Shown here in pieces: positions 3,628 through 50,100 of a DNA stretch of 64,000 nt; position 1 is the stretch's first letter; the number at the start of each line of letters is the position of its first letter. Position numbers and translations under genes: made by a program. The stretch covers positions 434,001-498,000 of the forward strand of contig JAYWIR010000040.1 in assembly GCA_036172245.1 (NCBI GenBank). The letters run 5' to 3'. This stretch comes from Raillietiella orientalis. Its lineage: Eukaryota. Below the pieces are notes generated by a model. That model was not told the origin of the DNA. It ran no database searches and was given only the letters and a program-made list of their open reading frames with translations.

Positions 3628-3698
3628 ATGCTGTGTACATTGAGAGTCAGCGAGCTGACCAACCTTACTTTATTTGCACGATCCAAGAGTTCCGGAAG
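3628..3698 (+). CDS. RERE: Atrophin/RERE exon, start of BAH domain ([24 protein letters not shown])
   Basis: ttttag| acceptor at 3626-3627 and |gtaagc donor at 3699. Matches the RERE BAH motif DxVYIES..PYFICxIQxF. Confidence 0.9.
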
Positions 3699-17100: not shown

Positions 17101-17131
<31 letters not shown>

Positions 17132-20100
17132 TCCTTTTTGTCTTTCTTGCTTCGAGTTTCCGAGAACATCCATCATTTGGGCTTTTTCATTTCAGAGCAA
17201 GAGCAACACCTTGATGGTAAACATAAAATGGTTCTACCGACCTTGTGAAATCCCTGAAACCGTGTATCAGCTGCTGGTACAAGATCGGAATACCGAGCAT
17301 AGTAAGTGTATTATGCCTACTTTTGCGAACTTTTGCCTAATGAAGAAATGGTCCGAAATTCGCTAAACGCTGCGGCTCTACAAGTGATTTTTCATGCTCT
17401 TTCGGAATGCGTTTCTGCATCTTCCATCTGGAGGTTTATTCCACACGTTTTCCTCTGGGAATGCCGAGTGCTGGTTACCTGGGTCTTTATGATCTTTTTT
17501 TTTTTTTTTTTTTTGCAAATCGTACGGATCAGCTGATACCAAATGTTGCATGCACTGTGCCTGTAACTAGTTAATTGACTAATGCAATAACTTCTAATCA
17601 TTGCAAAGGTCATCATCACCTCTTTCCAAGAATCGAAGATCCCCTTTCTTTGGCCGTCGCTCTTTTTTGGAATCTTGTTGACCTTTCCACGCTGTGAGTG
17701 CAGAGGCATCCAACACAGTCAGATGTGTCCACTTTCTGAAGTAGTTCGCTATTTGCATTGCCGTTTTTTTTTTTTCTTTTTTTTTTTTTGACCGGGCCGT
17801 TCTCCACACGAGTATTGGTTATACTTCCAAGGTTGGGACATTTGGCGGAACGGCATAATTCCGTGTCATGCAAATGGACCGAGTACAGTTCCTCACTGGT
17901 AATCAAAAGAAGAGAAGAAGAAGAAGGAAGCAAACGCTCAGTCACAATGACGAGCCAGGAAGCGGAACACGAAAGCAGAAGTGTTCTCTGAGCTTATGTG
18001 AGAGGTCGTCGCTCACTTTTTTTTTTTTTTTTCTTTCTTCTCTTCCAACTGCAGCACCATGCATCTTGATTCCGTTGGGTTCGGAGCTGTGCTTGTGATT
18101 CGTGGCCCGTTTTCTTGTTTGAGGGCACTACGAACCGTGCACCGTGGATTGCAGCATCGTCACTGGGTGTTTTAATGGTCCTCGTTTCATGTAGGCCTGG
18201 CTCCAATAAATAACGTCAACTTGGAGATTTTTCGCGTGAATTCTGAAAGCTCGGCGCGCGTAATCGGTGCTTCCTCCTCCCGAGACCGTAACGTGTTTTG
18301 TGCGGGTGGTTCGTGTTTCAAGTCTGATGGCGCAGAAGATGCAGTGCTCAACACTTCATGGGAGGCGTCGCTGCAATTAACTGCATCTAATTTCAGCAGT
18401 AAGCAGTAATTAGATTCGCGCTCCGCTCCGTTATTAGTGACATTAAGGACTTCATTTTTGGGGGGGATTTTTTTTTTTTTTAAATTTTGAAACATAGTTT
18501 CGGGGAGCGTTGTCTTCCATTACTAGGATCAGTGCCCACTGTGTGCCTAGTTTCAGTGCTCCCAAACTGGAGTCACTGTAAAGCAGAAACGCGTGCAATT
18601 TCTGAGCGGCCTCGCATTCTGTTTACAAGTGATAATTTATGTGATTTGTAAGGTGCTGAACACGGCCGCCAAACTCACTCCGCGTTTCTTGGGTTTCAGG
18701 GAACCTTTTAAGATCCAGGGAACCCTCTTATTGCCGCCCTCTTCTTATTGCTGGAGTAAATTTATTCACCGCATTTTCCTCCGAGCGTATTTTTTCCGTC
18801 TGTGCATCTGTATTTTTTTGTTTAGGTAATTTCGTGACCCGAGACACCCAGCCGTTATAGTATGGTGTCCTTCTCTGGAGCGAGGATTTGAAAGCAATTC
18901 GATCCTTCCGATTTAGACACGTTCGGTCGAAGTGACTTGTCGTACGAAATTATTTGTAAGTTTTTTCATGTGACAGTATTTGGAATTTGCCGTGTCGTCC
19001 TCCATGGATAGTGAACTTCCTGCTTTCTTCCACCGTAGCGACTTTAGAGCGGAGAAGTGTTTCGGAAGCTCAAGGCAGTATCAAGGAAAACCACAAAGCA
19101 GACAGAGCAGAGCGGCTGTCATTCCGGAGGTTCCTTGAGTTTTTTTTTTTTTGTAAAAGAACTTTTCACGTTTCCTTCTTGTCTACGGTTTTTTCCTATG
19201 ATCTGATATGTTTCTGTTCAAAATCGCTGTTTCCGTTAGTATCGTTTGTGTTGGGGGGCAGTAGGCGTAGTTGGGTTTCTAAACGAAAAAGAATGATTCT
19301 CGGCACCTGAGTCGAGGACTGCTGATACTTAATAAGGTCCAGAAACACAGCCGCAAGATTTCACTTTCAGTCTGAAGGTGTCTGTCCTCGAGATCTGTGC
19401 ATGTCTGTAGCTCTCCAGAGTTGTTGTTTTTCAAAAAATTCAGGTTGGTCAGCATGGTCAACCATTGTATCCCCCAAAGGTTTAACAAGGTCTCCCATTC
19501 CTCGTACGATGGTGTCCATATAATTTTTCCCAATTCCGGCAGCACTGGTTGCGAAAAAAAAATACAAGAAAATAAAATAAAAATAAAACGAAAAGTCATG
19601 CGTTTACCAGAAATGTGCTTTAGGTTCATTCATCCCTTCCTCTTTCACCGTCCGTTGCTCACCACACTGCACATCCCCACACTGATCCCCGTCAGCATTT
19701 GTATGCTCTTTGGAAGAATTTTTCCTTGCTTCATTTCCAAACCAGGCAGGTTTTCAGTTTCTTTAATCATTACCATTCCACTACTCCCTGGATTCAACGG
19801 CATCCTCGAATAAATTACTGTAGTGGATTTCTTGGCTCAGTTCTCTTTGTCCCGGCGCTTTTCGGCAGGCTGTAATCTCGGGAGCACGATTCCCGATTTC
19901 GATTTCAGTGGTTTTTATCAGCAGTCAACTCCAAGCATCAGTGTTTCATCTTATCTGGCGCTTAATCTTGCTTACCGGAAAGGCTCTTCGTTAAATCACG
20001 CCAATTCCTTACACATTTCTTGTGTACCCGTTATCGCTTGCATCAACCTCGTGCCTCATATGCAGAATTTGAATCGTGCTTTTCTGCATTACTGCCTTTG

Positions 20101-34300: not shown

Positions 34301-37300
34301 GGCACATATTCAAAATCTTCCCCTTCCGTCGCGTGTTTCATTCGCAACGGTCAGTACTACTGCCGCCTGTCACAGTGAGCACCGCAGTGGTCATTCCTCC
34401 GCACACAGTCTGCCTTTGGAGACGCGTGTTCCAGAACTCTTTGCAGACCTGCGGAAGACAAAGTGTGCGCCCACGGAGCGCCGATTCGGAGCACGAATTC
34501 GACCGTCGAGTGCGAAAGGAGGAGCGACCGAGGGAACGCAGTATCTCGACGTGTGCAGATGGGGATCGTGAAGAAGATCGTAGCGTTCCCTCTGCGTTCC
34601 CCATTTCGTTCTCTTGATGTTCCGTTTTGCGTTCGCGCTGCGAGCATTCTCAAAGGGAACATTAACCGTGCGAAGTTGCGGTACGCATCCAGGAAGAACG
34701 CGATTTCGTCGTGTACGAACTGCGTGCTTCATCGTCTGTTGGTTCTTGAATTTGTTTGTGACCTTCTCTGGGAGTGACCAGTTTTCTTCGTGCGTGTTAT
34801 CGGTTCGCGAGCGTGCTCCTGTCTTTGGTTTTCTGAGGGATGAAAGAGAGGCAGAGGGAGGAGGAAAATGTTTTTTTGGGAAGAAAGTTTCGGAAGGGTG
34901 GCTCCCTTTTGCTGCAAAATCTTTGTGCCCCAGAATCTCAAATTTGCTGCCTCTCGGCCGACGCATGTGTTTCGGCAGCAGTGGAGCGGCATTTTCGGGA
35001 ACCCGTCGATTCCCGAAAATGCCGCTCCATCAATCGATTGTTTGTGCTTGGTGTTTGTGGCGACTCCGGGACACAGGTGAAACCGATCGTAAGGAACTTC
35101 GGCATCTTTGCTAGCCCGTTGCGGCGCGTCGGAAAGAGCGCTGGGGATTGTCTTCAGCACTGCAGCAGAGCAGCGTGCTTTGGCTACAGAGTCGGTGGCT
35201 GGAGAAGCACATGTTGTGTTTTTCGTGGTACGAATTCGAGCTACTTATGGTGTAGGGAAATGAGCAGACGAAAAATTCGCTTTACACCGATTGTGAGAGC
35301 GCTCTCAGGTGACAACAGCGCCTACTTTTCGGGACTGGGAGGTATTACTCGAGACTGCGAGGAGGAAGACCTGGGGTTTCCGAAGCGTAGGCAACCATCC
35401 AGGAAGCATGAAAGGAGTTCAAGAGAAAAATGGACTTGGAAATCTTTGACTTCCATGCCGGAGGACTCATAAGGGATGATGAGGACTCATTTTCTTCTTA
35501 TGTAGAAGTATAGAAGGGATCTGCGTCTTTCATACGAGGAGCCACCGTAGTAGTAGATACTCCGGCCTCCGAGGTTCAAGCGGCCATTGTGGAGGAGGGG
35601 GCTGCACGTGAGGGTAAACCCTCACATGCAGTCTCCATGGAACATGGTGTGCCTCGCTCCTCCCACATCACTTTTCCGGAACTTCTTCCAGCTCTGCACT
35701 TCCTGGAGCAATCTCCTCGTACTTCGCGTTGGCGTTTTGCATCGTGAGTCACTGCTGTTATCATCAGACATGTATCGAAGATTTCTGGGGCAAGATTACG
35801 CTTACAATGTTCTGGCTTGTCTTTCAAAGAAGTGGATAAAGGCAGAAACCTCTGGATATGGAGCCTGGAACGTCGGGTGCGCAAAACCTCAGTAGGCTAT
35901 GGACACTTCTGAGGTTCCAAGTCTAGCTGTTTTTTTTCAAGTGTTCGCGTGTCTCTTTGGCCGCATACAGGGAGCTTTTGTCCTCTGTAGGTGCGCCTCA
36001 CGGTAGCTTTGTGTGGCCCCTATTTTCTCAACTAAGTCAAGGGAACATCTATTGTCTGCTGCTCGAAACAAGGATTCTTTCTTTCTGACATCATTGCCGA
36101 GAAACAAGTTGACTTCCATTCCTGAAACACGGAGGGGACGGGAATATGGCTCCTCGAAAGCAAACTGGCATCGTCCTTGACTGTCGAACTCGAAATTGTA
36201 AGCCTTGTCCAGAGTCTTCTAGTTTTTCCCTTTGTGGTGAAGAGGAAGCGATTCAGAGAATCATCTTTCGGCAGTGTCAAGAAAGCTTAACACAGGTTTT
36301 GGCTGCTCTTCGCAGACAGCATCTTTCAAGACACTGAAGTCAAAGAGTTCAGAAATTTCCCCTTCCCTCCCCTCACTTGTGTGGTTCCGATGACGAGAAA
36401 AGTCCGTTCCGCTGAGTGGGCGGGTGGGTGGGTGGGAATGAACATGAAGGGGCGGGAACGCCGTTATCTCTTGCTTCCTTCACCCTGTGAGGTCAGCGCT
36501 GATTGTGGGTGCGGTATGGGGACTGATCGAGAGACCTTTGTGGGGAAGTCCAAAGGGTTCGAACATCGCGAGGTTCTGCCGGCGTTTTCCTTCTCTCTGG
36601 TTCCCACTCGCTCGCCAGGCACTTCTGCTGCAATGGGCATGTTTCTTCTTGCAGAAGCGGTTCGTGAAGGGTCTCCGGCAGTACGGCAAGAACTTCTTCG
36701 CCATCCGGAAGAATCTGCTTTCCTCCAAGGAGACGGTACGTAGCTCCTTCGCTCTCTCGTTCCTCCTTGCGTCTGACTTCCCGTCCTTGTGCCCGCAGAC
36801 TGACTTGGTAGAATTCTATTACTTGTGGAAGAAGACTCCTGGAGCAGCCAGCTTCCGGCCTCATCGCCGCCACAGGAGGCAGAACGTGCTGAGGAGGATC
36901 CGCGCTGTTCGCGCGACAAGGAGCCACAAGGAGAACCCAGGTAAGAAGGTGCCCGCGCTCCTCTCCTTCCTCCCGGCTCTCGCAATTGCCAAGGAAGGAG
37001 GGGTTCGGATCCGTGTGCTCGCTCCTCCACATCCGGGTCTTTTTTCCTTTTTCTTTTCCAGGAGACCTGAGCTCTGCCAGCGAGGAGGACGACACGGACG
37101 ACTCGGACTCCCGCGATATGAGCGGCTACCACTGTCGACACTGCTGCACCACCAGTAAGTTTCGGCGCCGCGACCCGAAAAGCACGCTAGTGGCCCTTTC
37201 TTTCCGCCCAGGCTCGAAGGACTGGCACCATGCGGGCAAGAACAAGGTGCTGCTGTGCACCGACTGCCGCCTGCATTTCAAGAAGTACGGCGAGCTGCCC

Positions 37301-40300
37301 GCGAAAATGCCGCCGTTTGTCTTCTGCCCGGTAGAAGCGACGGCGCCTGAGGAGGACAGCGGGATGCGGACGCGGACGAGGAGCAGGGAGCTGGTGGGGC
37401 CGCCCCCCACCCGCCGCGCCGGAACCCGCTCTCATCCCGGTCGTTCCCAGCAGCTGTCTCAAAAGAGGGCCTCAAGCAGCTCCGACACCCCAGATACGGA
37501 CGTCCCAGTGCTCAACGGCCACAGCAAGTCGCCTAGCACAGTCAGCAGCGCTTCCTCTTCGTCGGATGACAAGGCCAAGAGGAAGGACGGGGAGGAGGAC
37601 GAGGACGAGGACGGGGAGGACGAAGATGACGTGGCAGAGGAGGAGGAGGAAGAAGAAGAAGAGGACGAGGATGAGGATGACGACGACGACGAGGAGGAGG
37701 AGGAAGGCAGGAATGAGGAAGCAGGAGAGAGGAAGGTGGCGCCCCCGGAAGCGAAAGACGACCTTCTGCTCGCCAAGAAGAGGAAACTGGGCCACGACGG
37801 AGGCGCGGAAGAAGATGACGAGGAAAGGCAGGTCTCCGCTGTTGTCCCGGAAGAGGATAGGGAGAGCCCTTCGGACAGCGAAGGTTCCATGGACGAGAGG
37901 ATCGCTGCCTCCGGCCCACTGGCAGCGGCTTCCTGCCTGGTGCAGACTGAGCCTCAGGATCCAGTGAAGCCAGAACCCCCGCCGTCCCCCCCCGTCTCCT
38001 CTACTTTTGCTCCCGAGGAGTCTGCTCCTCTGCCTCCTTGCGTCAGTATCCCGGTCGACCCCTCCGTCTCTGCTAGCTGCATCCCTCTGCTAGGCAGCTT
38101 CGGCCCTCCTGAAATGCTTCCCACCTCAGTGAAAGACGTACCTCCCCCTCCCCCTCCAGTGCCCTGCACGGATAGTAGCGGCGGCGGCAACGGTGGAGGC
38201 GATGAGGAGGATGCTGAGAGGGAGGAGCTCTCGAACAGCAGCAATGGACCGAGTGCAACTCCTCAGACGAAGGTGATGATGGCAGAGTGTCATGGACCCA
38301 AGTCTGAAGAAGCTACGCTGCTTCCCACCGCGCACTCTCTTCCCCCTTACCCTCCTTACCCGTTCGGATTTGTGCCCTTCGCCCCGCCAGTGCCTCTTGC
38401 CCCCCCACCCCCGTGCCATCTTCCAGCCCCTGTCACCCCAGGATTATCCCTGGATCTGGATACGGAAGTCAGAGCACCCGGACCCTCTCTCTACGTCTCG
38501 TCAAAGTCCCTGCCTCCCCTGCAGCCCCCCCTGCGGTGTTCGCCCGATCTTTACAAGGTTCCTTCCATGCAGACGAGCGTCACTGTCGCCTCCTTCGCTT
38601 CCTCGAGTGGTCACCATGGTAGCGAGGAGGGCGGTTTTCCGCATGTGGAGGAGCGTGACGAGGAGGCTCCCAGTCCGTGCAGTCACGCACCTTGCGGACC
38701 TAGCCCCGAGCCCCGGGTCGAGGACGTCGAGTGTCATCGCAGCCAAAGCGCCATGTGAGTCTTTCATCCCGTTCTTTCCAGCAGCAGGCTAGTTTCCCTC
38801 CCCTTCGTTCCATGATCTTCCAGATTTCTGCGCCATTGGAATCGTGGAGACTGCAACTCCTGCGCCCGCACTGACATGACTTTCAAGCCGGTTCCCGACT
38901 CCAAGCTTGCCAGAAAACGGGACGAGAAATCCAGGAAGCAGGCAGACAGGGAACGCGAGGAACGTGAGAAGGCAGCTGCTGCAGCCGCGAAGGTGAGCCG
39001 AGCGCGCGCCTGCCGCACAGGAAATCTGCAACGCCCTGCATCTTTCAGAAGAAGGAGATCGAAAAGAGGGAGGTTGTCGTTAAGCCAGAGAGCGTCCCGA
39101 TCCTCGAGCGAGCACTCCCCCCACGGTCCTGCCCAGGGTTCTCCGAGGTTCCCGTTCTCCGCCAGATCAGGTAAGCAGGAGCCGGTGGGCTGGTCGGCGC
39201 CTTTTTCACTCGAGACCTCTGGTGGTCATCCGTGCGGCTCCGTGCTGCTGGAGGCAGTCCTGGCAGAGAGGGGGAAGAGGGAGTGAAATCCAGGAATTAG
39301 GCGTCGTTGACTGTCTGTTTCTTCCTTCTCAAGTTTCTTGGCATCCTCCGGCACACCCCTTCCCTCCATTCCTTTCCGGACATGCCGAGCTATCCTCCTC
39401 TGTCCTCCCTGACGAGAAGATAACTGCTCCCTACTTCGGTCGGTGGCTCTCGTTCCACTCTGGAAAGGGTTCCTTCCTCCCCTCTCCCCCCTGCCAGAAC
39501 AAAGCAAAGCAGAGCGCCTCGTCAGCATGCCCGTCGACATGGCGGCCAGACGCATACACCTTCGCACGCTCTTCACCGCGGTTCAAAGCAAACCAGAGAA
39601 AGTAATTCGGAAAGAGGAGGAATAGGGAGTGTCCTCGAGGAGGAAAAAGACGAATGAGGGTCGCCAGAATAGACTCTGATTTTTTTTCTCCAACTCCTGT
39701 TACCCTAGGTTACCTTTCGCATATCCCGTTTTTGTGGACTTGCAGGTACCACTCCTGATTCCTCCTTTCCTCTGCACAGGAAGGGAGGGAGGAGATGGAA
39801 TTCACTCACTGTTTCCGGTCCCCCCCCCCCCTCGTGTATCGTGCAGTCGATGGACTTTGCCGCCCGCACCAAATTGGTCCCAGTCTTCCCTATTCTTCGG
39901 GCTATTATTTTTTGCGAAACGTTGGGCCGGCAGCGACCCACTCCAGGAACGCTGGACGCTAAGGGAATCTTGGACGCTTGAAATCTTTTCTCTTTGGCTT
40001 CCAACCGTCCAGCGCACCCATGCTCTTTTCCAGTGCTCCCAGTTTCGCAGGGATCTCTGCATCTGTTCAGCGTTCGAGCCCAAGCCGGGCCGTCCTGTTC
40101 TCGAGCCTCGATTCCCGAGCATTCCTCCCGATTCCATCCGGTGCCAGTTTCCAGCGCGTGTTGTCCTTTCGGCATCCACCCCCCTCGTCCAATCAAAGTC
40201 GACGCTTCCTGGCGATAGGTATTCCTCATTCGAGCCTCTCTCTGGCGCACGCAGGAACCACACACCTATCACCAGCCTGAAGGCCCCGAAGGGTCATGCT

Positions 40301-43300
40301 GATCAGCGTCGACGTTACCACGCGTGATACTTAGGGTCCTGTGCATGTGCTGAAACGATGAAGTAACTCGCGACTTTAGTGGCAGGGGGAGCCATGCGAT
40401 TAGTGGTCGAGTCTTCCAGGTAGCCGCGTTAGCACGTTTCACCAGCGGTGCTATGTGGAATTCTGAAGGCGTTTGGATGGCCCATCATCTCATGGCTCTG
40501 TACAGGCAGCGAGTGCCATCGAATATACGGGAAAAAGATCAGGAAGTGAACCGCTCCTTGTTTCCTTGTTTTCCCCACTCTAAAGAGGTTCAGTGCTTTT
40601 TCGGGAGCGTGAATTTCCATGTAGCAGAAGCCTGCGACGTGTATGCGAGTAGTCGCTTTCTGTCGGCGTGTCGTGATCCTCGCTGACCGTCAGTACGATT
40701 GTCTCCATCCCAAACAGTTTGACTGCAGCTCTGAGTTCATACGACGATTTCGTCCATGAGGGCGTTTTCTCAGTGGCAGCATCTTGAAAGTCGCGGTTCA
40801 TTTCATGCGGTGGCGTCGTTTCTGGGATAGCAAAATGGACAACATGGATTTAACCCCCACTCTCTCTGCATGGAGGAAGATCGGCTCGTTTCCTCGTTTC
40901 TTGCTGGTTTCGAAAATCCGATACTCTCAGATCGCATGTTTATTCCTGTTCTTCCTGTTCTTTCCAGATTAAAATTATTAAGTCGTATGCTCGCCCGCCC
41001 ATCTCCAAGTGAACTTTCTTCCCCAAATGCTTCTTCTGCATTCTGTCCCGTCTTGCTGGGAAGTCGGCTTGTGTGCATGCGCAGTTCGCGTCTATAAAAT
41101 GGAAAACCTGTGCTGGGTCAGTGCTGATCTCTGACCCCGGGACGGTTTCAAAACTCCACGTCTCTAATGCAGAAGACAATGGACCTAATGAAGACTACCA
41201 GAGCGAAAGTTTTTTTTTTTTTTATCTGTTGCTTAGACAAAGTGTCGTAGGTTTCGAGGAAGAGTGTTTGTTTTCGGGAGGCTTTTTTCCTGGTTTATGT
41301 TTCTGCTGAACGCTCAGACTTTGAGGATGTTATATAAAAAAAAAAAAGAACTTAAGATTGGAAAGTAAATACACGAGCAGTCTAATGTGAATCTAGCCAC
41401 AAATAGGACACGCATCATCACAGATTCCTTCATCTCCTTAAATTACTCGCAAAGCTCTAGAAAACTTAGTAATTTGTGTGAATCGACTTCATTCAAACGT
41501 GATTTGTGAAAAGTTATGTACACGGATATGTTTTTGCAATAGAAAATTAGCCGCAATTCATCGTAAGCTTTCCATTCCGGTACATCCCTGTTGTTTTCTG
41601 GTTTCTCTGTGGATGTTGGCTCATTTCATGGGTCATAAAAAAAAAAAAAAAAAACTCTCCATCATGAAATCTTGAGCTTTACCCTAACAGAAATACAATA
41701 AAGTGTGTATTACAGCTTCCAGTTTCACGTATTCGGAAGCGTTCTGCCATGGAGGTAAAGTCTGCAGTGACCTGGATTTTCACTCTATTAACCCAAGGTC
41801 GCGATTCATTTCTAAGAAAGTTCCCCGATGGTGGATTTTATTTGTGGAGATCGATGTACGGTTCCTCTGGCTCAGACGAAAAACAAATTCGATGAAGCAC
41901 GCAGTCTTAAGACTGTGTGATTGACGTCTTTCTATCTTTCTGCAGGTGCCCAGGCGTTCGGTTGGGCAACATGACTCTCTTGTGATCAGGTTTCTTTTCT
42001 CTCCTTTTTTCCCGCTCACTCCTCGGTGTAGATCAAGTTAAGATGAAGTTTTTTTCCTCGGTGTAAATTTGTAACAAAAGTTCTTCAGTCCGCGATTTCT
42101 TAAATTTCAATCGAGGATGTCGGCATCCGACTGATTGGAAACTCACACGAGAGAGAACTTCGTTTGAGATAACTTCGAGACTGCCGGGTGAAGTCTCGTA
42201 GAAGCAAAACTGCGGTCAAGGAAAACGGTCAGCCGTTCACCCAGCGAAGGGGGGATTTCCAGGGTGGCCAAGGTTTGTTGGCACTGATCGGTTCATGACG
42301 TGATTAACGCAGCTCGATGTAAAAACAGTCAAACTCTTGGAGGTTTCCTTCATTTTTTTTTTTTTGGTTTTTTTTGTTTTAGCGAATACATGCGTCCTCA
42401 TGGTGGACTATCGCCAAATGTTGTCCGTTCCGGCATGATGTTTCCCAGAGCTGGATTTGATCACAATTTGCATTTTCCGCTGGGATTCTACGGAGATTCC
42501 CGCACATGGCTCGAGCTGGAGCACATGGAAAGGGAAAAACGAGAAAGGGAATTTAGAGATCTGAACGATCGCATCAAAGCCGAACTGGAGATGAAAACCG
42601 GCATCAGTCAAGGTGCTGCTGGCCCGCGCCTGCTGGATCCACACTGGCTTGAGCTTCACCGGCGATTCGGGATTCCTCTGGGCATTGGTTTGCCATCCGC
42701 GCTGCCCACCATCCAGCCATCACCATTTCCCTTCTTTCCAAGTGGCAACGTGTCGCAGCATCTCCAAGGTCAGCTGGAACGGGAGAGATTAGGTAAGTCC
42801 GAACGAGAGTATCTCAGCCGGTAATTGTTTCTTTTCCAAAGGAATTAGTCCTGCTGGCCCCTTGCCATCAGACTCTAGTCTTGAGAGGCTACATGCAGAG
42901 AGGATGGCTTTTGCCCCCGATCCGATGCTCCGTTTGCAAATGAATACTTTTTCCCCCGAGATTCATTCACATTCCCATGCTCATGCACATGCGCACACGC
43001 ATTTACATTTGCATACTGCATCTGAAGTAAACCCAGGGTTCCAGATACCAGGTGGCTTCCAATTTCTTTATGCTATACTTTGTGGACAATGTCGTGGAGA
43101 ATTCCACTGCAACTGTATTAGCACGGTTGTGTTTTTTATTTGTATCGAGTCGTGTGTACCGTCATGTGTACCGTCAGCATACGTCCGCGTCTTGAGCAAA
43201 GATTCTTCCAAACGAGCATTCGTAAAGTCGCCGGAGGACGTGGCACAAGGAAACTCTTCACCGTTCGGGAAAACTCGAATTCGATAGGTGATAGGTACTA

Positions 43301-45027
43301 TCGGTACTACACTGAAACGTTGCAGACGATTCGAAAATGATTGGCGGAGTCGGCAATGATGTTCTTGGTTGCAGGTTAAGCAGTTATGAGCTGTTTGCTT
43401 GTATCCTTATTTTCGTGGGTTGTGATTGTAATGCACTTCACAAAGCTTCTGAAATTCATTGAGACAACTCATCAATAAGCATTTGGAGTTCCACATTGGG
43501 TACATGTAGGCGCATCCAATACGTTGTGCATTGAGATCATACTTGCATCAGTTCTCACTCTACTTTCTGGTCATGGTTATGAACATGGCAAGACAAACAT
43601 CCTTGAGCCAGGAAAATGAAGAGATAATGCATTTTGTGTTCGGTCTTAATTAGTTTGCGGGCACATCAAAAGAAACACATTTCAACCGTAGAAGTGCAGA
43701 TCAGAGGTCAGTCAGTTCTCTGCCTAAAGCATTTTTCAAGACAGCCTAATGTGGGCCAATTTCTGAGCTACCACCACGAAATCTGACAATTAGAATATTC
43801 AGGTTGAAGAAAAGAGATACCCAGTTTGTTCGATAAGAGTTGTATTCATGGATCTAGGATGTAGCCTTATAAAGTATAAAGTGGATATACCTGCAACAAG
43901 TGTTTGTTGCAGGTCCATCTACTTTATACTAGTTCTACTTTATAATAGAATTGTGCAGTTGGAAAAAAAAAAAAATTATTTTAAAACCATTATCATCAGT
44001 CATAATGAACATCTAACGTACACATGTGAAGTAAAAGCTTAATTGCTTTCTAAGTATTTGTAACCACCAATGTGGGGGTTAAAGCTTTCTTACCCAAGTT
44101 CTGAAATGTGAAATTTCCAGCTCAGCCAGTTTTATTCATGCATATTTAGACTAGCTGACTGTTTTCGTTTATTTACCCTGTAGATAAATTAGGAATTATT
44201 CTAGGAATGTATTCAGAAATTACTCAGGTAGCAATCATTTTTGACCATAGTATACACCATGCTTAATTAGGGGTAGTCCTGCTAATTCATTACTTTTTAT
44301 TTAATGCAGCATCAAAAAACAAAGCCTTGTTAACGTCCTTTTGTTGTGCGAATGGGAGCACATCTAGACACAAACCGAAATTATAAACTGCATCCTTCTC
44401 TGTAAAGAACCTGACAACATAAATTTTATTCCAAGTTCTCTGGTTTTGGGAAATTCTGAAATAAGCATGCTGACATGCTTATTTCAGAATGTTTGTAAAA
44501 TACAAAATACATTAATTTTCGGCATTTGATTCACCAAAGCCAGTAATTTAGATATCTTATGTCTTGGAATCCGGATGTTTAAATACCAATTATACTAATT
44601 CCAATCTATTCTTGATAGGTTACCGGCCAAGTCTAATTCCTTCCCGGGAACATGCTCCTCTTTCTTCTGTACATCCATCAGTAGCAGGGTTGCTAGGACG
44701 TTCATTTGATGAACAATTTGCCCATCAGGTAAAACTTCATACAATCAAAAAATTGCCTTGAGGATGTTTATTTTTGCAGCTGACAGCACAAGCACAAGCT
44801 GAACAATTACAACGACACATTCTAATGGAAAGGGATCGATTTCCTCCTTCCCTTCTAGGTGCCCAATTGCAACCTCAGTTTCTTACCTCACCAGAAGAGT
44901 TTGTTAGGTACAGACAATTACTAAACACTAGCTATATATTTGATGGTTTTATTCATGCCATTTTAGACAGCAACAAGAAATGAAAGTGCGTGCATTAGAA
45001 GAAGCTGCTCGTAATTCACGGTCATAA
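3628..45027 (+). CDS. RERE: Atrophin/RERE (arginine-glutamic acid dipeptide repeats protein, Grunge-like) nuclear co-repressor; spliced gene, 5' end probably incomplete. join(3628..3698,17196..17301,31385..31481,31537..31690,31760..31993,33972..34070,36655..36735,36799..36940,37062..37154,37212..37393,37451..38754,38824..38992,39049..39170,42383..42792,42842..43051,44619..44728,44780..44907,44967..45027)
   Basis: All 18 exons have AG acceptors, all 17 introns are GT-AG, and splice phases are mutually consistent through to TAA at 45025-45027. The spliced translation carries the RERE/Atrophin domain series recognised from family knowledge: BAH ([18 protein letters not shown] / [10 protein letters not shown] / RELFISD / [11 protein letters not shown]), ELM2 ([35 protein letters not shown]), SANT ([34 protein letters not shown]), GATA finger (CRHC-x18-CTDC), and Atrophin-1 motifs ([52 protein letters not shown]). 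Confidence 0.95.
10355..10820 (+). mobile_element. Possible decayed BEL/Pao integrase fragment
   Basis: Ordered pieces in different frames: [37 protein letters not shown]. They loosely follow the BEL integrase motif order MGxL / KxY..TRA / ALRRF / FxGAxxEL / LWE..V. Confidence 0.22.
15340..15590 (-). mobile_element. Decayed Ty1/copia pol fragment (post-integrase SH3-like region)
   Basis: GKLFGAE...[17 protein letters not shown] resembles the copia motif FWAEA...GxKPDxxxLRVFGCxAY. Frames are broken. Confidence 0.3.
17196..17301 (+). CDS. RERE: Atrophin/RERE exon, BAH domain ([35 protein letters not shown])
   Basis: tttcag| acceptor and |gtaagt donor. Phase 0 in and phase 1 out fit both neighbours. 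Resembles the RERE KWYYRxSEVPxSVYQxLVQDR segment. Confidence 0.92.
22870..23010 (-). mobile_element. Possible decayed piggyBac transposase C-terminal fragment
   Basis: Minus-strand [29 protein letters not shown] resembles the piggyBac KWYKKxxxxLLxxAxVNAWI segment; contains stops. Confidence 0.25.
23255..23307. repeat. Tandem duplication of a 26-27 nt unit
   Basis: atgctttggtgttcataggggaaacgg followed directly by atgctttggtgttcataggcaaacgg. Confidence 0.85.
25345..25370. repeat. (TG)13 microsatellite
   Basis: Read directly. Confidence 0.9.
31385..31481 (+). CDS. RERE: Atrophin/RERE exon, BAH domain ([24 protein letters not shown])
   Basis: ctccag| and |gtgagc sites; conserved RELFISD motif. 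Confidence 0.93.
31537..31690 (+). CDS. RERE: Atrophin/RERE exon, BAH end and ELM2 start ([38 protein letters not shown])
   Basis: ttctag| and |gttggc sites; highly conserved [18 protein letters not shown]. Confidence 0.95.
31760..31993 (+). CDS. RERE: Atrophin/RERE exon, ELM2 domain ([35 protein letters not shown])
   Basis: attag| and |gtaagc sites; 78 codons, phase 0/0; part of ORF 31787..32071. Confidence 0.95.
33162..33193. repeat. (CG)11 microsatellite extended by alternating purine/pyrimidine; potential Z-DNA
   Basis: cgcgcg..cgc (33162-33184) followed by acgtgtgtg. Confidence 0.85.
33972..34070 (+). CDS. RERE: Atrophin/RERE exon, ELM2-SANT linker ([33 protein letters not shown])
   Basis: ttgcag| and |gtaaga sites; 33 codons; not present in the ORF track. 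Confidence 0.93.
36655..36735 (+). CDS. RERE: Atrophin/RERE exon, SANT domain ([27 protein letters not shown])
   Basis: ttgcag| and |gtacgt sites; SANT consensus. Confidence 0.95.
36799..36940 (+). CDS. RERE: Atrophin/RERE exon, SANT helix 3 and basic stretch ([23 protein letters not shown]..)
   Basis: ccgcag| and |gtaaga sites. Confidence 0.95.
37062..37154 (+). CDS. RERE: Atrophin/RERE exon, DLSSASE acidic motif and first half of the GATA zinc finger (GYHCRHC)
   Basis: ttccag| and |gtaagt sites. Confidence 0.93.
37212..37393 (+). CDS. RERE: Atrophin/RERE exon, second half of the GATA zinc finger ([32 protein letters not shown])
   Basis: cccag| acceptor. The 3' boundary uses a weaker gtgggg donor and the following 57 nt intron is in frame, so it could be read through. 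Confidence 0.88.
37451..38754 (+). CDS. RERE: Atrophin/RERE large central exon (Ser-rich, D/E-rich, Pro-rich; ends [19 protein letters not shown])
   Basis: Part of the 590 aa ORF 36986..38758. Ends AT|gtgagt in phase 2 into the conserved HRSQSAIF motif. Tandem CAGCAG acceptor at 37448-37453. Confidence 0.9.
38824..38992 (+). CDS. RERE: Atrophin/RERE exon, Atrophin-1 conserved block and RE repeat ([40 protein letters not shown])
   Basis: ttccag| and |gtgagc sites; strongly conserved atrophin motif. Confidence 0.95.
39049..39170 (+). CDS. RERE: Atrophin/RERE exon ([17 protein letters not shown])
   Basis: tttcag| and |gtaagc sites. The phase 2 end joins C-GAA-TAC to give P.LRQISEYMRPH, the counterpart of the RERE PALRTLSEYARPH motif. 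Confidence 0.85.
42383..42792 (+). CDS. RERE: Atrophin/RERE exon ([32 protein letters not shown])
   Basis: ttttag| and |gtaagt sites; within ORF 42300..42824. Confidence 0.92.
42842..43051 (+). CDS. RERE: Atrophin/RERE exon ([33 protein letters not shown])
   Basis: ccaaag| and |gtggct sites; His-rich atrophin C-terminal motif. Confidence 0.9.
44453..44490. repeat. Perfect 17 bp inverted repeat with 4 nt loop, in an Atrophin intron
   Basis: attctgaaataagcatg-ctga-catgcttatttcagaat. Confidence 0.9.
44619..44728 (+). CDS. RERE: Atrophin/RERE exon ([24 protein letters not shown])
   Basis: gatag| and |gtaaaa sites; phases fit. Confidence 0.85.
44780..44907 (+). CDS. RERE: Atrophin/RERE exon ([26 protein letters not shown])
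   Basis: ttgcag| and |gtacag sites; Atro-box-like EQLQR..MERDR..EE motif. Confidence 0.88.
44948..44953 (-). terminator. Candidate AATAAA polyadenylation signal of DJ-1, inside the last Atrophin intron; a second lies at 44767-44772 in the preceding intron
   Basis: TTTATT on the + strand about 125 nt past the DJ-1 stop; first canonical hexamer downstream of that stop. Confidence 0.5.
44967..45027 (+). CDS. RERE: Atrophin/RERE terminal coding exon ([20 protein letters not shown])
   Basis: ttttag| acceptor and TAA stop at 45025-45027. [10 protein letters not shown] resembles the C-terminus of arthropod atrophins. Confidence 0.88.
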
Positions 45028-45077
45028 CTGTGCATCTGCATTCAAGAATGCAACAGTAAAAGACTACAGAAGTCAGT

Positions 45078-45199
45078 TCAATTAGAACACAAAAGAGCTG
45101 CTTTTACAGAGCTAGCCTTCTCTGTACCAAGAAGTGAATCCACAATTTTAAGAGCAAATTCAAAACTGGTGCCTGGTCCTCTGCTTGTGATCAGTTTAC
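45078..45199 (-). CDS. PARK7: DJ-1 terminal coding exon ([25 protein letters not shown])
   Basis: cctag| acceptor; TGA at 45080-45078. Confidence 0.95.
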
Positions 45200-46618
45200 C
45201 TAGGAGTACAACTGCATCAGTACATGTGCTCATAAAGTAGCTTGCATACCATCAGTCACAACTCTATCCTGTTTGTACCTGAAGTGATCACTGAGTTCAG
45301 ATTCTTTCGAAGGATACGATGTGCCGAATTTATTTTTACCAATGCCATGTGCTTTCAATGCACAAGGTGCTATAAAGAAAAGAAAAGAAAAAAAAAATTG
45401 AAAACATGATTAATGAAGTGTTTTTTTTTTCCCAACATTCTATGAAATTCACTGCCTTGGTGTTGTCTTTCAGAAAGTATATTCAAGAAAGACTGAATCT
45501 ACACCTCAGACAACCTGATAATCCATGATAATCTAAGGAAAAATCATTCAACATATGCAGAAACTTAGTGCCCTGTGCTATTTTCCAAAAACTTTCTAGT
45601 TTTTGGTACTCATGAAAGGAATTACCAGTTAAACCATCTTGATTTTAAATTAAAGGCAAACTAAACTTAATAGACGACTTTTAAGGAAAAGAACTGAATT
45701 TCTCAAATAAATACTATAATAGTCGTATTCGTTGCTCTTCATAGAAATGCACCAATGACTTCATGTGATAGCATAAATTCGGAAAACCGTATACACGAAT
45801 AAAGTTTTTAACTTAAACTTCAAATCCATGGTTTATTTGCTAAATATTTGTTTACTTCTGATAAAAGAGTAATTGCTGCATGTTAAGAATTACAAGTCTG
45901 CATAAAAATGAACTTCTATGAAGTTGTCATTAGGATTGAAAGATCTCAAATACACGAACAAAGCTGAGAAGGACTTACCAGCACAAATAGCTGCAATCCA
46001 TCTGTCATTTGCTTCTTGATCAAGGAGAATTTTCTTTACATCTTCAGACTACAACATTAAGAATTAGTTTTCTTTAGTTACATTCAATGATATCAAAATA
46101 ATCAGTACAGTCACTATTTCTACATGTACTATCTATATGTATCAACTGTAATTTACTTTAACATTTCCATAAGTGCAAAGATCATAATAATGGGAATTCT
46201 AATATCACATATGCTATGTTAGGTACCAAAACTTACAGCTGATAAGTTTTCACTTCCTTCGAGTCCACCTGGGAGGACAACCACATCATAAGGTGCATCT
46301 TTAATTGCTTCTTGCAAGCTCTTATCAGGTACAATCTTCACCTTTCGTGAGCATACAACTGGTGAAGCTCCTAAACCTGCTACAGTGACTTCTATCTATG
46401 GCATTACAAAAACAGATTAACAGTACTCTGCAATGTATTATTGTTAGTTATATACAACATAGAAGCTTCAAGTTTTAGACATTATCTTATCAGTAACTTT
46501 TAGTTCATGAGAGTTCATAAATGCTAAAAACCTCAGCTCTTCTGAGAACATCTGTAGATATGACAAGTTCCATTTCTTCAGCTCCTTTGGCCAGTATAAC
46601 CAATGCCTTCTTGGTCAT
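45078..46618 (-). CDS. PARK7: DJ-1 / PARK7 (DJ-1/PfpI family, glyoxalase/redox sensor), complete, 185 aa. complement(join(45078..45199,45250..45369,45979..46048,46237..46395,46532..46618))
   Basis: Spliced translation: [185 protein letters not shown]. Glu17 (human Glu18), Cys104 (human Cys106), YDVVVLPGG and [13 protein letters not shown] are conserved. All introns are GT-AG and phase-consistent. Confidence 0.97.
45250..45369 (-). CDS. PARK7: DJ-1 coding exon 4 ([20 protein letters not shown])
   Basis: ttatag| and |gtatgc on the minus strand. Confidence 0.94.
45706..45803 (+). terminator. Candidate AATAAA polyadenylation signals of Atrophin (45706-45711 and 45798-45803; ATTAAA at 45649-45654), inside DJ-1 intron 3
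   Basis: First canonical hexamers downstream of the Atrophin stop. A variant AGTAAA at 45055-45060 is an alternative. Confidence 0.45.
45979..46048 (-). CDS. PARK7: DJ-1 coding exon 3 ([18 protein letters not shown]), carries the nucleophile-elbow Cys
   Basis: ttgtag| and |gtaagt on the minus strand. Confidence 0.95.
46237..46395 (-). CDS. PARK7: DJ-1 coding exon 2 ([21 protein letters not shown])
   Basis: catag| and |gtaagt on the minus strand; 53 codons. Confidence 0.95.
46532..46618 (-). CDS. PARK7: DJ-1 coding exon 1 ([23 protein letters not shown])
   Basis: ATG at 46618-46616; GT donor at 46531-46530. An in-frame TGA upstream limits any N-terminal extension. Confidence 0.95.
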
Positions 46619-46707
46619 GTTTGTACCTCCACTGATACAACGCACCAATTTTCTCCAGTCACTTTTCAGAAAACTCTCAGAACTTTCAGTCAACTTTCAG
46701 AAAACAA

Positions 46708-47100
46708 CTGCATTACAATCACACATTCTGTATCATACAAAAACTTGGGTTATTTAAGTATCAAAGTAAGGGAACAAAGGATCATTATTTTAAATATTAG
46801 AAAGTGTCGTGTTGCAGATTACAATATAAGCAAAAGCATTTGCAAAGCACTTAGTTCACAAAATTTAAGGGCACGAAAGTAAACCCTTAAATGCGGAAAA
46901 CGTTTGTAAGTACATTTGACAGAATTAATTGTGGGTGTTCTAATTGGGCTAATCAATTAATGTTGAATCAGTTAATATATATTAGCTTAATTAATGTACC
47001 TATAATTCGACAATCACAGTTTACACTGTTTTGGCTTGTCCTCATCACACAAATGTGCCTTCCACGCAATACATTCCCCGAATTCTGAGCGTACACTCAC
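46708..47100 (-). other. Putative 5'-UTR intron of DJ-1 (non-coding first exon would lie above 47100)
   Basis: Minus-strand GTGAGT donor at 47100-47095 and AATGCAG acceptor ending at 46708, about 90 nt before the ATG. Inferred from splice motifs only. Confidence 0.4.
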
Positions 47101-50100
47101 TCATTTATGAATGTAAAAAGAGAAGAAGCAAAATGTGAAGTTCATCCGCTTGTTAAAAAGATTTACGGTGATTTTGCATGAATTTGTATTGTATAAGCAT
47201 CACATCAAGGCAAGGGACACGGACCGGTAATTATGTGAAGTTACTCCTAAACGATGGTTGTTAGTTCGAGGGATGTTTTGGATGAACTTGAAACAAGAAA
47301 ATAATTATATCCCGCAACCAAACACACGAACAGTAGTTGAACACAAATGAAATCTATAAGAGTCGGGCAAACCAAATTTCATTTCGAAAATACTTTTTAA
47401 TGTTTGAAATCGATACCCTTGTAACACTACCTCCAAAGTTTAAATGAAGCATTTTTTGCACAAATTGTTCGAATGCAGAGAAAATTTGCAAACATTTCAG
47501 AACAAACGAGTGCAATTCGAGATGTTGGAAAAGTTGCATATGAATTTTACAACGACTGCAAGGGCGAAAAGGCAAAAAGCCACGTAACACGGAACTCAGC
47601 TGCAGCCAGCATCACCACCAGTCTTTAATTTCCGCCTTAATTACGGCTCATTTTAGTGTACGTACCGCCGGGGCGCGTACAAAGTTCACAACAGGTTTAC
47701 TTTCCTTTGCCGAATCACATCGATTGACGACACTCGGAATTTAAACTGATTTTAATCGGGCTTGTGTGTCCAATTGCAGGAGACGGAGTTGTTCTTTCCA
47801 TGCTGGAATTCGGTGCAACATCATTCAGATGATGCACACTGTCTCCACTCTCTCACTGCTTGCAGCTTCCGATGTTCAGCATCACTGCTGTACCATGGGA
47901 TCGACATTGCATTTACTAGAGTACACTGTATAATGGTCGTACCAGGAAGTGAGGGTCGCCGTTCTATCACATGTCGGACTCATCGCTTCCATAACAAGAA
48001 GTTGCTATTCTCATGCAAACTCTGGGAATTGTGTGTTTAATTGCTGCATTTTCACGATTTCAGTTTCTATTTCCCAAGAGGGAAGTACAAGTTATCGTCC
48101 AACATTTTTTAAAGGACGGGGAGAGATGCACTGTTTTTCCCTCATACCTTTTTAACATAATGACATGGCACTTCTCGAAAATAATCTCTTCCAAAAATGC
48201 ATCTTTCAGATGATCTATGTGCTTTTCCAGAATTTATTTTTGCATTTCTCTACTGCTTCCACTTGTTTTATTAATATCTTTACGCGCATTTCATAAGTTT
48301 TTCGAAACATTCAAAGGCGCTTTCTATTGTTTTTGCAGAATACCTTTATTTGTACAATCTTATTGAGCTTCGACTAACTACTATTTTTGGTAAAGGGGTC
48401 TATGAGGAGGAGCTGGAGATTGGATTTTCTGATCAGGACCTCGGAAAAACACGAAGATCTCTGAGCAAGCACTCGTGCTACGAGAATCTCTGCCTGCGAA
48501 CATCCTGAGGTTCTGCAAGCAGAACGGGCTGAGCTAGTGGGAAGAAGAGGAGGAAATGTCAAATGCTGCGACTGAACCTTGTTCCTTTGGAGATTTGAGA
48601 GGGCATTGAGGGAGAGAGTGCATTCACGTAGGCGGATTTCAAAGGACACGGTGAAGGGGTGGCTGACGGGAATCGACCCGATCGTCGAAAAAAAAGGGAG
48701 GGCGAGTGAAGAAGAGGCTGAGCAGACGTGGAAAGAAGGTTCGTGGAAGAAACATGAAACCTTGTCGAGGCGTCGCTAGGAACCTGGTGGTGGTGAGGAA
48801 GCATGTGCACAGCAGTATCTCAGTTTGTTTTCTGGAACGGTCAGGGTCCAATCTCAGGAAGAGCAACAGAAAAACATAGGAACAGAAAAAGAAAACTTCA
48901 AAGAAGGAAGAAAAGCAGCAGAAGTATGCAACAAAGCATCCTTTGCTGTTTGAGGAGCTGCATAGTCCACGGGAAGGAAGAAGGGGCTCGAAGGAGACAG
49001 GCAAAAGGATGAGCCTTACAGAAAAACCAGGGATGAAAGGAGGAATGCTTAGAAAAAGAGCGCATGAGGAAAAGATGAGAAGAGAAGACTAAAAAGAGAA
49101 AATCCGTCTTCAAGGGTGGCAGGTGGATGGGTAGGGTGGGTAGAACCTGGGAGGAGCAAAAGAAGTCAAGAATAGAGGGTCAAAAATGCATTTTCTTTGA
49201 AAGTTGCCTTCCTCTTCATTGTAAAAGTTCTCCTTTTTTTTCGGTTATAAGTGGTGTTTCCATCACAGGATCTGCTGCTCAAAGCGCGACGTGTCTTTGG
49301 GCCCAAAAGAAGTGTGGGAGGTTTCCAGGACCTATTGGCCAACACTTTTAGAACTATCAGGAAAGTCTTCTATGATCCCCTGATACAACCACAGGCCACG
49401 TTTCTTTTTCTCCAGCAACGCGGCAGCCCGAGAAACCTCGGAGAAAAACGATCGCGCAACCCAAAACCAGGAGGCTTGAAAAGGACCCAATGCCGGGCTC
49501 CTTGCTATTCCTAGGGTGCCGAAAGATGCTCCTCTGGTGGACAGGGAGCACACCCAGGATCTGCAGTCTTCTCGAGAAAGGGTCGGCCGGCCTTCGAACC
49601 TGAAGTAAGATCCTGGTGCCGACTTTATGAAATCTACAAGCACATTCTGGTGGATCCGGTGGGCGCTGCAGCCCCATGCAGCAGCACCTGCTGGATGCTT
49701 TCCCCACGAGTGCACTCGCAGGACTTCTTGGTAGCGGCCTCTCATGGCGAGGAGGGAAGCTCTCCCTATAGAGGACCACTGCGTCTCATCCCCGCCCTGC
49801 ACATCTGAATCTGCAGGTGCTGCTGCTCTTTCGGTGCTGCTGCATGGGAGCGGCGGGTGGATGAACAGGGGTACCACTGCGTGCAGCAGGACGAGGCAAG
49901 GGGATTAGGGAGGAAACGCCGCTTCGCACGGTGTCCCGGATGGAGCGCGGTCACGAGATCTGCATCGCGCACCTTCTCCCGCAGGGACCAGTGGGGGAGT
50001 TATCAAAGGACCAAAGTTTGGCCCTCGATTTGGCAAGTCCTCGTCTCATGGTGCGCAAGAGGGCCTCCACGGAAGAGGGGGCTCAGGAAATTGTCCTGCG

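Follow-up and report, generated by a model that had tools for sequence, protein, structure and literature searches.

The window, i.e., the 64-kb stretch of genomic DNA that was analysed, carries an Atrophin gene on the plus strand and a DJ-1 (PARK7) gene on the minus strand, of which the 3' ends face each other (window coordinates, based on gene models; Table 1). The Atrophin TAA and the DJ-1 TGA are separated by a short spacer, and all coordinates given by the initial annotation for these stop codons and the 50-nt gap between them were found to be correct.

Table 1. Features of the convergent Atrophin/DJ-1 locus in the window.
Feature	Position	Strand	Evidence
Atrophin/RERE antepenultimate coding exon, 110 nt	44619-44728	+	AG acceptor, GT donor; tblastn to RERE C-termini
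Atrophin intron, 51 nt	44729-44779	+	GT..AG, frame continuity; splice predicted
Atrophin penultimate coding exon, 128 nt	44780-44907	+	Open frame, AG/GT borders; resembles RERE C-termini of Folsomia, Daphnia, and decapods
Atrophin last intron, 59 nt	44908-44966	+	GT..AG; minus-strand AATAAA at 44953-44948
Atrophin last coding exon, 61 nt including TAA (45025-45027)	44967-45027	+	C-terminal motif of RERE proteins
Spacer between stop codons, 50 nt	45028-45077		Plus-strand AGTAAA at 45055-45060
DJ-1 3'UTR, observed minimum, at least 132 nt	44946-45077	-	Record 2, joined to spliced DJ-1 exons
DJ-1 last coding exon, with TGA (45080-45078)	45078-45199	-	Pfam positions 138-164, RNA splice joint
DJ-1 intron, 50 nt	45200-45249	-	RNA joint skips 50 nt, CT..AC on plus strand with cut +3; sole GT..AG candidate
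DJ-1 coding exon 4	45250-45369	-	Pfam, RNA contig, gene model
DJ-1 intron 3, 609 nt	45370-45978	-	GT..AG; contig pieces 45247-45366 and 45979-46048 adjacent
DJ-1 coding exon 3, conserved cysteine motif	45979-46048	-	Pfam, RNA contig, gene model
DJ-1 intron, 188 nt	46049-46236	-	GT..AG; spliced out in RNA contig
DJ-1 coding exon 2	46237-46395	-	Pfam match, RNA joints
DJ-1 intron, 136 nt	46396-46531	-	GT..AG; spliced out in RNA contig
DJ-1 first coding exon and at least 58 nt of 5'UTR	46532-46676	-	ATG at 46618-46616; Pfam, RNA contig, gene model

Identity and structure of the two genes

An open reading frame at 42793-43287 matches the Pfam Atrophin-1 profile (PF03154) with 37.5 bits, against a cut-off of 29.9, and a GATA profile match stays under its cut-off in the Pfam search of the window (23.6 and 26.8 bits, respectively). 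The N-terminal parts of 10 RERE proteins align by tblastn, with 43-78% identity, to exons between 3597 and 37507, and BAH, ELM2, Myb/SANT, and GATA domains appear in the Pfam lists of these matching RERE proteins themselves. Such a BAH/ELM2/SANT/GATA N-terminal module is characteristic of RERE rather than of vertebrate ATN1. At the other end of the gene, the last exon matches the very C-terminal ends of the RERE proteins of Allacma, Folsomia, and Daphnia (65-76% over 20-23 amino acids; tblastn) and encodes a C-terminal motif that these share with Centruroides RERE, and that is found in the printed C-termini of half of the 10 RERE proteins (P0002, P0006, P0097, P0106, and P0009). This conservation of the RERE C-terminus indicates that TAA 45025-45027 is the true Atrophin stop. 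In the RNA data described below, a first contig (record 1) spans 44616-44705 and is joined to the upstream Atrophin exon ending at 42792. A Protein Atlas search with the Atrophin exon was uninformative (top score 0.82).

DJ-1 is a compact gene of 1.6 kb, of which five minus-strand exon pieces match the DJ-1_PfpI profile (PF01965) in order, covering positions 1-27, 28-79, 81-105, 103-146, and 138-164 of 165. The profile was run per exon piece, and exon 2 is the only piece that by itself exceeds the cut-off (43.6 versus 26.6 bits; E = 3.7e-11). The spliced gene encodes 185 amino acids, and its translation contains an 'AAIC' elbow, with the nucleophile cysteine, and a 12-letter string of the C-terminal helix region, both of which we take to be DJ-1-defining motifs. 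As had been proposed, the 609-nt intron is the longest of DJ-1, the others measuring 50, 188, and 136 nt, and all four are absent from the RNA contig. A run of A residues around 45375-45400 is the pyrimidine tract of DJ-1 intron 3 itself, read on the other strand.

RNA evidence for a DJ-1 3'UTR that enters Atrophin

A single public RNA sequencing run was found to match the locus (X1, a bulk metatranscriptome; 0.06 of the sampled words). Its DJ-1 contig (record 2, 804 nt) differs from the window at 33 of 745 aligned nucleotides (approximately 95.6% identity) and hence represents a closely related organism or a divergent allele; 11 of the 16 changed codons are synonymous, which identifies the contig as an orthologue under purifying selection. 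All four introns have been removed at GT..AG sites, so that DJ-1 of this relative or allele is expressed and correctly spliced. The 5' end of the contig, past 46676, has no match anywhere in the window at up to 3 mismatches.

At its other end, the contig runs unbroken and unspliced from 45196 to 44946, through DJ-1 exon 5, the spacer, the whole last Atrophin exon, and 21 nt of the last Atrophin intron, and stops 2 nt beyond the AATAAA that the minus strand carries at 44948-44953. Position 44946 is the end of a contig and not a mapped cleavage site. Since the contig crosses the entire last Atrophin exon, the DJ-1 3'UTR measures at least 132 nt and overlaps Atrophin coding sequence in antisense over 61 nt. 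The DJ-1 half of the arrangement put forward in the initial annotation, a 3'UTR antisense to an Atrophin coding exon, is thereby supported by a spliced contig that extends to 44946. The route of the contig into the Atrophin intron is unspliced, unlike what an Atrophin mRNA would yield.

Overlap of the transcripts is thus supported by a single contig of a close relative from a single run, with the strand known from the direction of the splice sites only. Contig depth is approximately 4, and the contigs carry neither strand nor poly(A) tail. Fusion of a DJ-1 mRNA with Atrophin transcripts by a de Bruijn assembler is conceivable, but needs an overlap of about the k-mer length, which was assumed to be approximately 31 nt. 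The terminal 251-nt piece of the contig holds 8 differences from the window, none of which falls within 44946-45027; the chance that all 8 avoid this interval is approximately 0.04, i.e., (169/251)^8. In the spacer, 4 substitutions (T>A, A>C, T>C, and G>T) and 1 insertion were observed.

Polyadenylation signals and the probable end of DJ-1

The minus-strand AATAAA hexamers reported previously at 44948-44953 and 44767-44772 are indeed located in the last two Atrophin introns, and the former fits as the DJ-1 signal in use, as the contig reaches 44946. Downstream of AATAAA 44953-44948, the minus strand continues with CA and then GTGTTT...TTGTCTGT, which is a classic signal layout, with a GU-rich downstream element at approximately 44921-44905, inside the last Atrophin intron. 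None of 12 hexamer variants is present on the minus strand from 45077 to 44954, so DJ-1 has no visible signal in the spacer.

Chance occurrence was evaluated by simulating the AT-rich sequence of the locus 5000 times with a first-order Markov model. In these simulations, a first signal as near as, or nearer than, the +124 nt observed on the minus strand has P = 0.26, and one as far as, or farther than, the +621 nt observed on the plus strand has P = 0.215. Hexamer placement by itself is no better than chance, and these values bear out the caution expressed earlier that AT-rich introns generate such hexamers at random.

Taken with the contig, this layout suggests that DJ-1 most likely ends at AAUAAA 44953-44948, with cleavage some 10-25 nt further on, near 44925-44938. 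The 3'UTR would then be roughly 140-155 nt and, as its signal lies inside the 59-nt last Atrophin intron, would be the exact reverse complement of the spacer, the last Atrophin exon, and part of that intron. The organism of the window presumably does the same as the close relative of which the DJ-1 RNA reaches at least 44946. Any Atrophin mRNA retains 44967-45027, so that the mature mRNAs would be complementary over at least 61 nt, a value that would rise to 111 nt if the Atrophin 3'UTR spans the spacer.

Atrophin and DJ-1 in this invertebrate genome are an ordinary convergent (tail-to-tail) cis-natural antisense pair of two coding genes. We consider it probable that their 3' ends overlap, with DJ-1 ending at the AATAAA in the last Atrophin intron, and that this overlap is tolerated. 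By default, the overlap is most likely read as a side effect of the close 3'-3' packing of the two genes rather than as a device dedicated to regulation.

The 3' end of Atrophin

The initial annotation went further and had each mRNA cover coding sequence of its partner. For this to hold, Atrophin would have to skip the weak AGTAAA and be cleaved after 45649, 45706, or 45798, which would give a 3'UTR of 620-800 nt antisense to DJ-1 exons 5 and 4; we regard this as a possible course, held tentatively. The ATTAAA at 45649 and the AATAAA at 45706 and 45798 do lie on the plus strand inside the 609-nt DJ-1 intron, as described, and no canonical AATAAA or ATTAAA precedes 45649 on that strand. T/GT-rich stretches follow 45706 and 45798 (T+G of 0.54 and 0.56), and in other animals the 3'UTRs of Atrophin genes are long and regulated. 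Against it, a first signal as far away as +621 nt arises in 21.5% of the simulations, the distal hexamers in DJ-1 intron 3 occur at chance density, and AGTAAA 45055, CATAAA 45231, and TATAAA 45371 are available as alternatives. The AGTAAA in the spacer could in particular be a live alternative candidate for the Atrophin 3' end. Moreover, one hint of a long 3'UTR is lost, as no miR-8/200 seed match occurs downstream of the Atrophin stop; with the motif that we assumed for this seed, 44000-47500 contains none except one 6-mer at 44053. RNA over 45370-45978, or unspliced across 45200-45249, is lacking from X1, a run too thin for this to count as absence, and the same thin run, which is no evidence on the 3' end, has no contigs over Atrophin exons 44780-45027 as spliced mRNA.

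Regulatory and structural interpretations of the overlap

Double-stranded RNA, endo-siRNAs, editing, polymerase collision, and anticorrelation under stress are possibilities for any such pair. That the Atrophin/DJ-1 overlap is a working regulatory device, in which double-stranded RNA leads to endo-siRNAs or A-to-I editing, or polymerases interfere, and the outputs of both genes are coupled, e.g., under oxidative stress, appears unlikely. In its favour, the mature mRNAs would be perfectly complementary over 61 nt or more, contigs of both genes are present in the bulk sample of X1, and, in the sections of PMC4079977 drawn on here, the cis-NAT siRNA loci of Drosophila belong predominantly to the class of convergent 3' overlaps. 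However, the same sections describe that overlapping Drosophila pairs without siRNAs equal or outnumber the producers at every expression level, such that overlap does not guarantee siRNA production. The spacer substitutions look like strain differences and not like editing. Furthermore, human PARK7 is without an annotated antisense transcript in the part of PMC6614138 considered, and nothing there suggests a conserved DJ-1 antisense mechanism. Across the whole 64-kb window, Rfam gave 0 matches at the gathering score.

A more speculative proposal, which we judge quite improbable, is that the micro-introns at the end of Atrophin have a second role as antisense terminators for DJ-1. Read in reverse, the pyrimidine tract of an intron of 50-60 nt becomes an A-rich block, here AATAAA, and, approximately 20-45 nt on, the A/C-rich 5' half and branch region of the intron become a GU-rich block; poly(A) sites are arranged in this way. 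Such a layout occurs on the minus strand in both last Atrophin introns (44953-44905 and 44772-44730); in the 51-nt intron, the minus-strand AATAAA at 44767-44772 is the T-rich tract read in reverse, and is followed downstream by a U/GU-rich stretch. If true, the two introns would be the primary and back-up terminators of DJ-1, and dual coding could lock both genes together, which may be part of the reason that human PARK7 and RERE have stayed neighbours. Were this to hold broadly, convergent genes would systematically obtain termination signals from short introns located close to the 3' end of the facing gene.

Finally, it is very improbable that both mRNAs end in the 50-nt spacer and that the extension to 44946 is an assembly artefact, rare read-through, or pre-mRNA: the contigs show neither strand nor ends, their depth is low (approximately 4), and AGTAAA is available to Atrophin, but DJ-1 lacks all 12 hexamer variants on the minus strand at 45077-44954, an assembler could not join transcripts that both end inside the spacer without overlapping, and the contig takes an unspliced path into the Atrophin intron, as a DJ-1 3'UTR would.

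Consequences of the overlap

As the DJ-1 3'UTR extends over Atrophin coding sequence, both genes will be misrepresented by gene callers that do not allow overlap, as well as by expression counts taken over 44946-45080 without strand information. Moreover, the DJ-1 3'UTR is not free to evolve, as 61 nt of it are fixed by the conserved Atrophin C-terminus, and this stretch has 0 changes relative to the contig of the relative. The pair is otherwise one more example of a very common arrangement, and its interest would rise if a coupling between a chromatin co-repressor and a redox-stress protein were true, or if the adjacency were ancient.

Comparison with related loci and known systems

Relatives of the locus were searched for among metagenome contigs, in which a degenerate pattern for the Atrophin C-terminus had 0 matches and a pattern for the last DJ-1 exon detected 11 loci. 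By tblastn, 7 of these contain a contiguous, prokaryotic-looking DJ-1 homologue (37-46% identity), L005 contains an intron-less homologue (62%), and L001, L004, and L009 contain the last DJ-1 exon only (65-70% identity). No similarity to Atrophin was detected in the 11 loci at E <= 1e-3, and the eukaryote-like loci (L001, L004, L005, and L009) gave only noise for Atrophin at E <= 50. Repeats were observed downstream in L004.

Human PARK7 and RERE are, in our assumption, also convergent and presumably a few hundred kb apart. Genes intervene between them, unlike in the window, where the stops are 50 nt apart, and this separation makes 3' overlap impossible there. A search of the literature on PARK7-RERE synteny or microsynteny yielded no relevant paper. 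The two genes are near neighbours in human 1p36.23, as in the window, in the order TNFRSF9-PARK7-ERRFI1-SLC45A1-RERE according to the portion of bioRxiv 10.1101/2023.12.04.569945 used here.

Tail-to-tail pairs of coding genes are a recognized and frequent class in the portions of PMC10491648 and PMC4079977 used here. The Drosophila 3'-cis-NAT loci (PMC4079977; class defined in PMC10491648), as presented in these portions, resemble Atrophin/DJ-1 in that coding genes on opposite strands have overlapping 3' ends, with one 3'UTR complementary to the terminal exon and 3'UTR of the other, and in that double-stranded RNA and polymerase collision are possible; in contrast, the Atrophin/DJ-1 overlap enters the coding sequence and an intron of the partner, and is not only 3'UTR against 3'UTR. 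Convergent Arabidopsis pairs that share poly(A) signals, which are mentioned in PMC10491648, are alike in that the terminal signals of facing genes are located in the same short stretch, whereas, as far as that mention goes, they differ in that the DJ-1 signal is the reverse complement of an intronic pyrimidine tract of its partner and is not common to both genes.

The convergent Atrophin/RERE and DJ-1/PARK7 genes

The window is eukaryotic, and 10 RERE proteins, chosen as queries among 120 listed of 475 matches, placed exons from 3597 to 45021 on the + strand (tblastn). Atrophin-1 was detected at 37.5 bits (cut-off 29.9) in the ORF 42793-43287, and a GATA match in the ORF 36893-38758 fell slightly under its cut-off (Pfam). 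The product of the last Atrophin exon aligns with the very C-terminal ends of RERE from Collembola, Daphnia, and scorpion (tblastn); the TAA of this exon is therefore the genuine stop. Identity to RERE in the conserved GATA-flanking part reached 47-54% at best among the matches listed, so the organism's own protein is absent from the protein collection searched; judged by its sequence, the Atrophin protein looks protostome/arthropod-like. The gene spans at least 41 kb (3597-45027), with gaps between exon matches of ~13.5 kb (3698 to 17193) and ~14 kb (17303 to ~31400), and DJ-1 spans 1.6 kb; given these gaps, compactness of the genome is non-uniform, being tight at the 3'-3' junction only.

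Five minus-strand exon pieces cover positions 1-164 of Pfam DJ-1_PfpI in order, and the model coding sequence of 558 nt encodes 185 residues plus a TGA stop, interrupted by introns of 136, 188, 609, and 50 nt (5' to 3'). The stop-to-stop spacer measures 50 nt (45028-45077), fully bearing out the observation in the initial annotation of two facing genes separated by this distance.

Features of the Atrophin/DJ-1 junction (window coordinates)
Feature	Position	Strand	Remarks
Atrophin antepenultimate exon	44619-44728	+	GT..AG borders
Atrophin penultimate exon	44780-44907	+	GT..AG borders
Atrophin last exon	44967-45027	+	61 nt, TAA 45025-45027
Atrophin last two introns	between 44619-44728, 44780-44907, 44967-45027	+	51 and 59 nt, GT..AG
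DJ-1 coding exons	46532-46618, 46237-46395, 45979-46048, 45250-45369, 45078-45199	-	gene model
AGTAAA	45055	+	candidate Atrophin signal, UTR ~50-60 nt
CATAAA	45231	+	weak-variant candidate Atrophin signal
TATAAA	45371	+	weak-variant candidate Atrophin signal
ATTAAA	45649	+	candidate Atrophin signal within DJ-1 intron 3
AATAAA	45706 and 45798	+	candidate Atrophin signals, DJ-1 intron 3; T/GT-rich sequence downstream

A sharp-edged AT-rich block (43600-48400), set between flanks of 45-65% G+C, contains DJ-1 in full as well as Atrophin's final three exons; within 43.6-48.4 kb all 400-nt bins have 31-39% G+C, except 47600-47999 (47%). Because of this block, the last Atrophin exons differ strongly in composition from the upstream ones (~58% G+C, ~36-39 kb). 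The intron 5' of exon 44619 contains two tight hairpins (43873-43930 and 44453-44490), both of which lie past DJ-1 in the minus-strand direction, one with arms of 27 nt that are 89% complementary and the other with arms of 17 nt that are 100% complementary, each with a loop of 4 nt; neither has an Rfam match.

Transcripts at the locus

The public RNA found consisted of one metatranscriptome run (X1), available as contigs and containing 0.06 of the sampled words, which derives from a relative, other than the window's own organism. Over 43000-48000 it provided two contigs at depth 3-4. The first, a 240-nt Atrophin mRNA (record 1), covers 44616-44705; its upstream part maps to 42760-42789 with 2 mismatches, giving the junction 42792|44619. 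This joint probably represents an alternative isoform lacking the histidine-rich stretch; the corresponding exon (~42862-42999), aligned by RERE proteins, is skipped.

The second contig (record 2, 804 nt) is DJ-1 mRNA, consisting of 46676-46532, 46395-46237, 46048-45979, 45366-45247, and 45196-44946, with all four introns spliced out at CT..AC (minus strand GT..AG), which sets its strand. Among 745 aligned positions, 33 disagree with the window; since 11 of the 16 changed codons are synonymous, the contig comes from an orthologue, carried either by a close relative or on a divergent haplotype. Its final 55 nt (5' end) matched nowhere in the window at up to 3 mismatches, the match stopping at 46676; they correspond either to an upstream non-coding exon (diverged or elsewhere) or to a divergent 5'UTR.

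The last piece runs unbroken through the TGA and the spacer, takes in the full 61-nt final Atrophin exon, and reaches 21 nt into Atrophin's last intron; such unspliced entry is expected of a DJ-1 UTR but not of an Atrophin mRNA. A contig spanning both genes is no proof of a single molecule; joining by an assembler needs a shared stretch of about k-mer length, so the transcripts overlap in either case. The contig terminates at 44946, 2 nt past the AATAAA at 44953-44948, which is followed on the minus strand by ACCATCA and next GTGTTTAGTAATTGTCTGT, by sequence the usual signal / CA / GU-rich layout. On the basis of this layout and the contig end, 44953-44948 is taken as the DJ-1 poly(A) signal, and cleavage, for which the contig carries no tail, would occur near 44925-44938.

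This 251-nt piece contains 7 substitutions and 1 insertion, five of these eight changes within the spacer and none in 44946-45027 (chance ~0.04 if evenly spread, own arithmetic), which fits constraint from the Atrophin coding sequence and splice site.

Poly(A) signals and the Atrophin 3' end

The initial annotation had proposed that each 3'UTR is antisense to coding exons of the partner, and this interpretation is half supported: the DJ-1 3'UTR is antisense to an Atrophin coding exon, as record 2 spans the spacer and the full last exon. All hexamers on which the proposal was built were recovered in place by a sequence scan. Their pattern is no more than chance: when the local sequence was simulated 5000 times with a first-order Markov model, a first AATAAA/ATTAAA occurred within 124 nt in 26% of runs and as far as 621 nt away in 21.5%. 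The minus-strand AATAAAs are the reverse complement of TTTATT within the pyrimidine tracts of both Atrophin micro-introns. It is improbable that these terminal introns serve as antisense terminators for DJ-1 and thereby lock the pair together, the boldest reading of the locus.

For Atrophin, use of a distal signal in DJ-1 intron 3 is conceivable but rather doubtful. If AGTAAA were used, the overlap would be limited to the DJ-1 UTR versus the Atrophin exon and UTR. The + strand CATAAA (45231-45236) lies inside DJ-1's own micro-intron (45200-45249), mirroring the Atrophin micro-introns, but this hexamer variant is weak. An A-rich run (45375-45400, + strand) directly 3' of TATAAA is the DJ-1 intron 3 pyrimidine tract on the opposite strand; it would cause oligo-dT to prime internally, so that 3'-tag data could show a false Atrophin 3' end.

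Comparison with known antisense pairs

A literature search for a published statement on RERE-PARK7 synteny gave nothing relevant, and scans of metagenome contigs yielded no related locus carrying both Atrophin and DJ-1. Human PARK7 and RERE are presumably convergent at 1p36.23. They are described there as near neighbours, with ERRFI1 and SLC45A1 nearby (bioRxiv 10.1101/2023.12.04.569945), and human PARK7 appears in PMC6614138 without an annotated antisense transcript. Drosophila cis-NAT siRNA loci are reported to be dominated by convergent 3' overlaps (371 in cell lines), and overlapping pairs without siRNAs to equal or outnumber producers at every expression level (PMC4079977); overlap per se therefore predicts little. 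Atrophin and DJ-1 form a tail-to-tail cis-natural antisense pair in which both members are coding genes, a class described as defined and frequent (PMC10491648). With no sign of special function, the pair adds a further case to a familiar arrangement.
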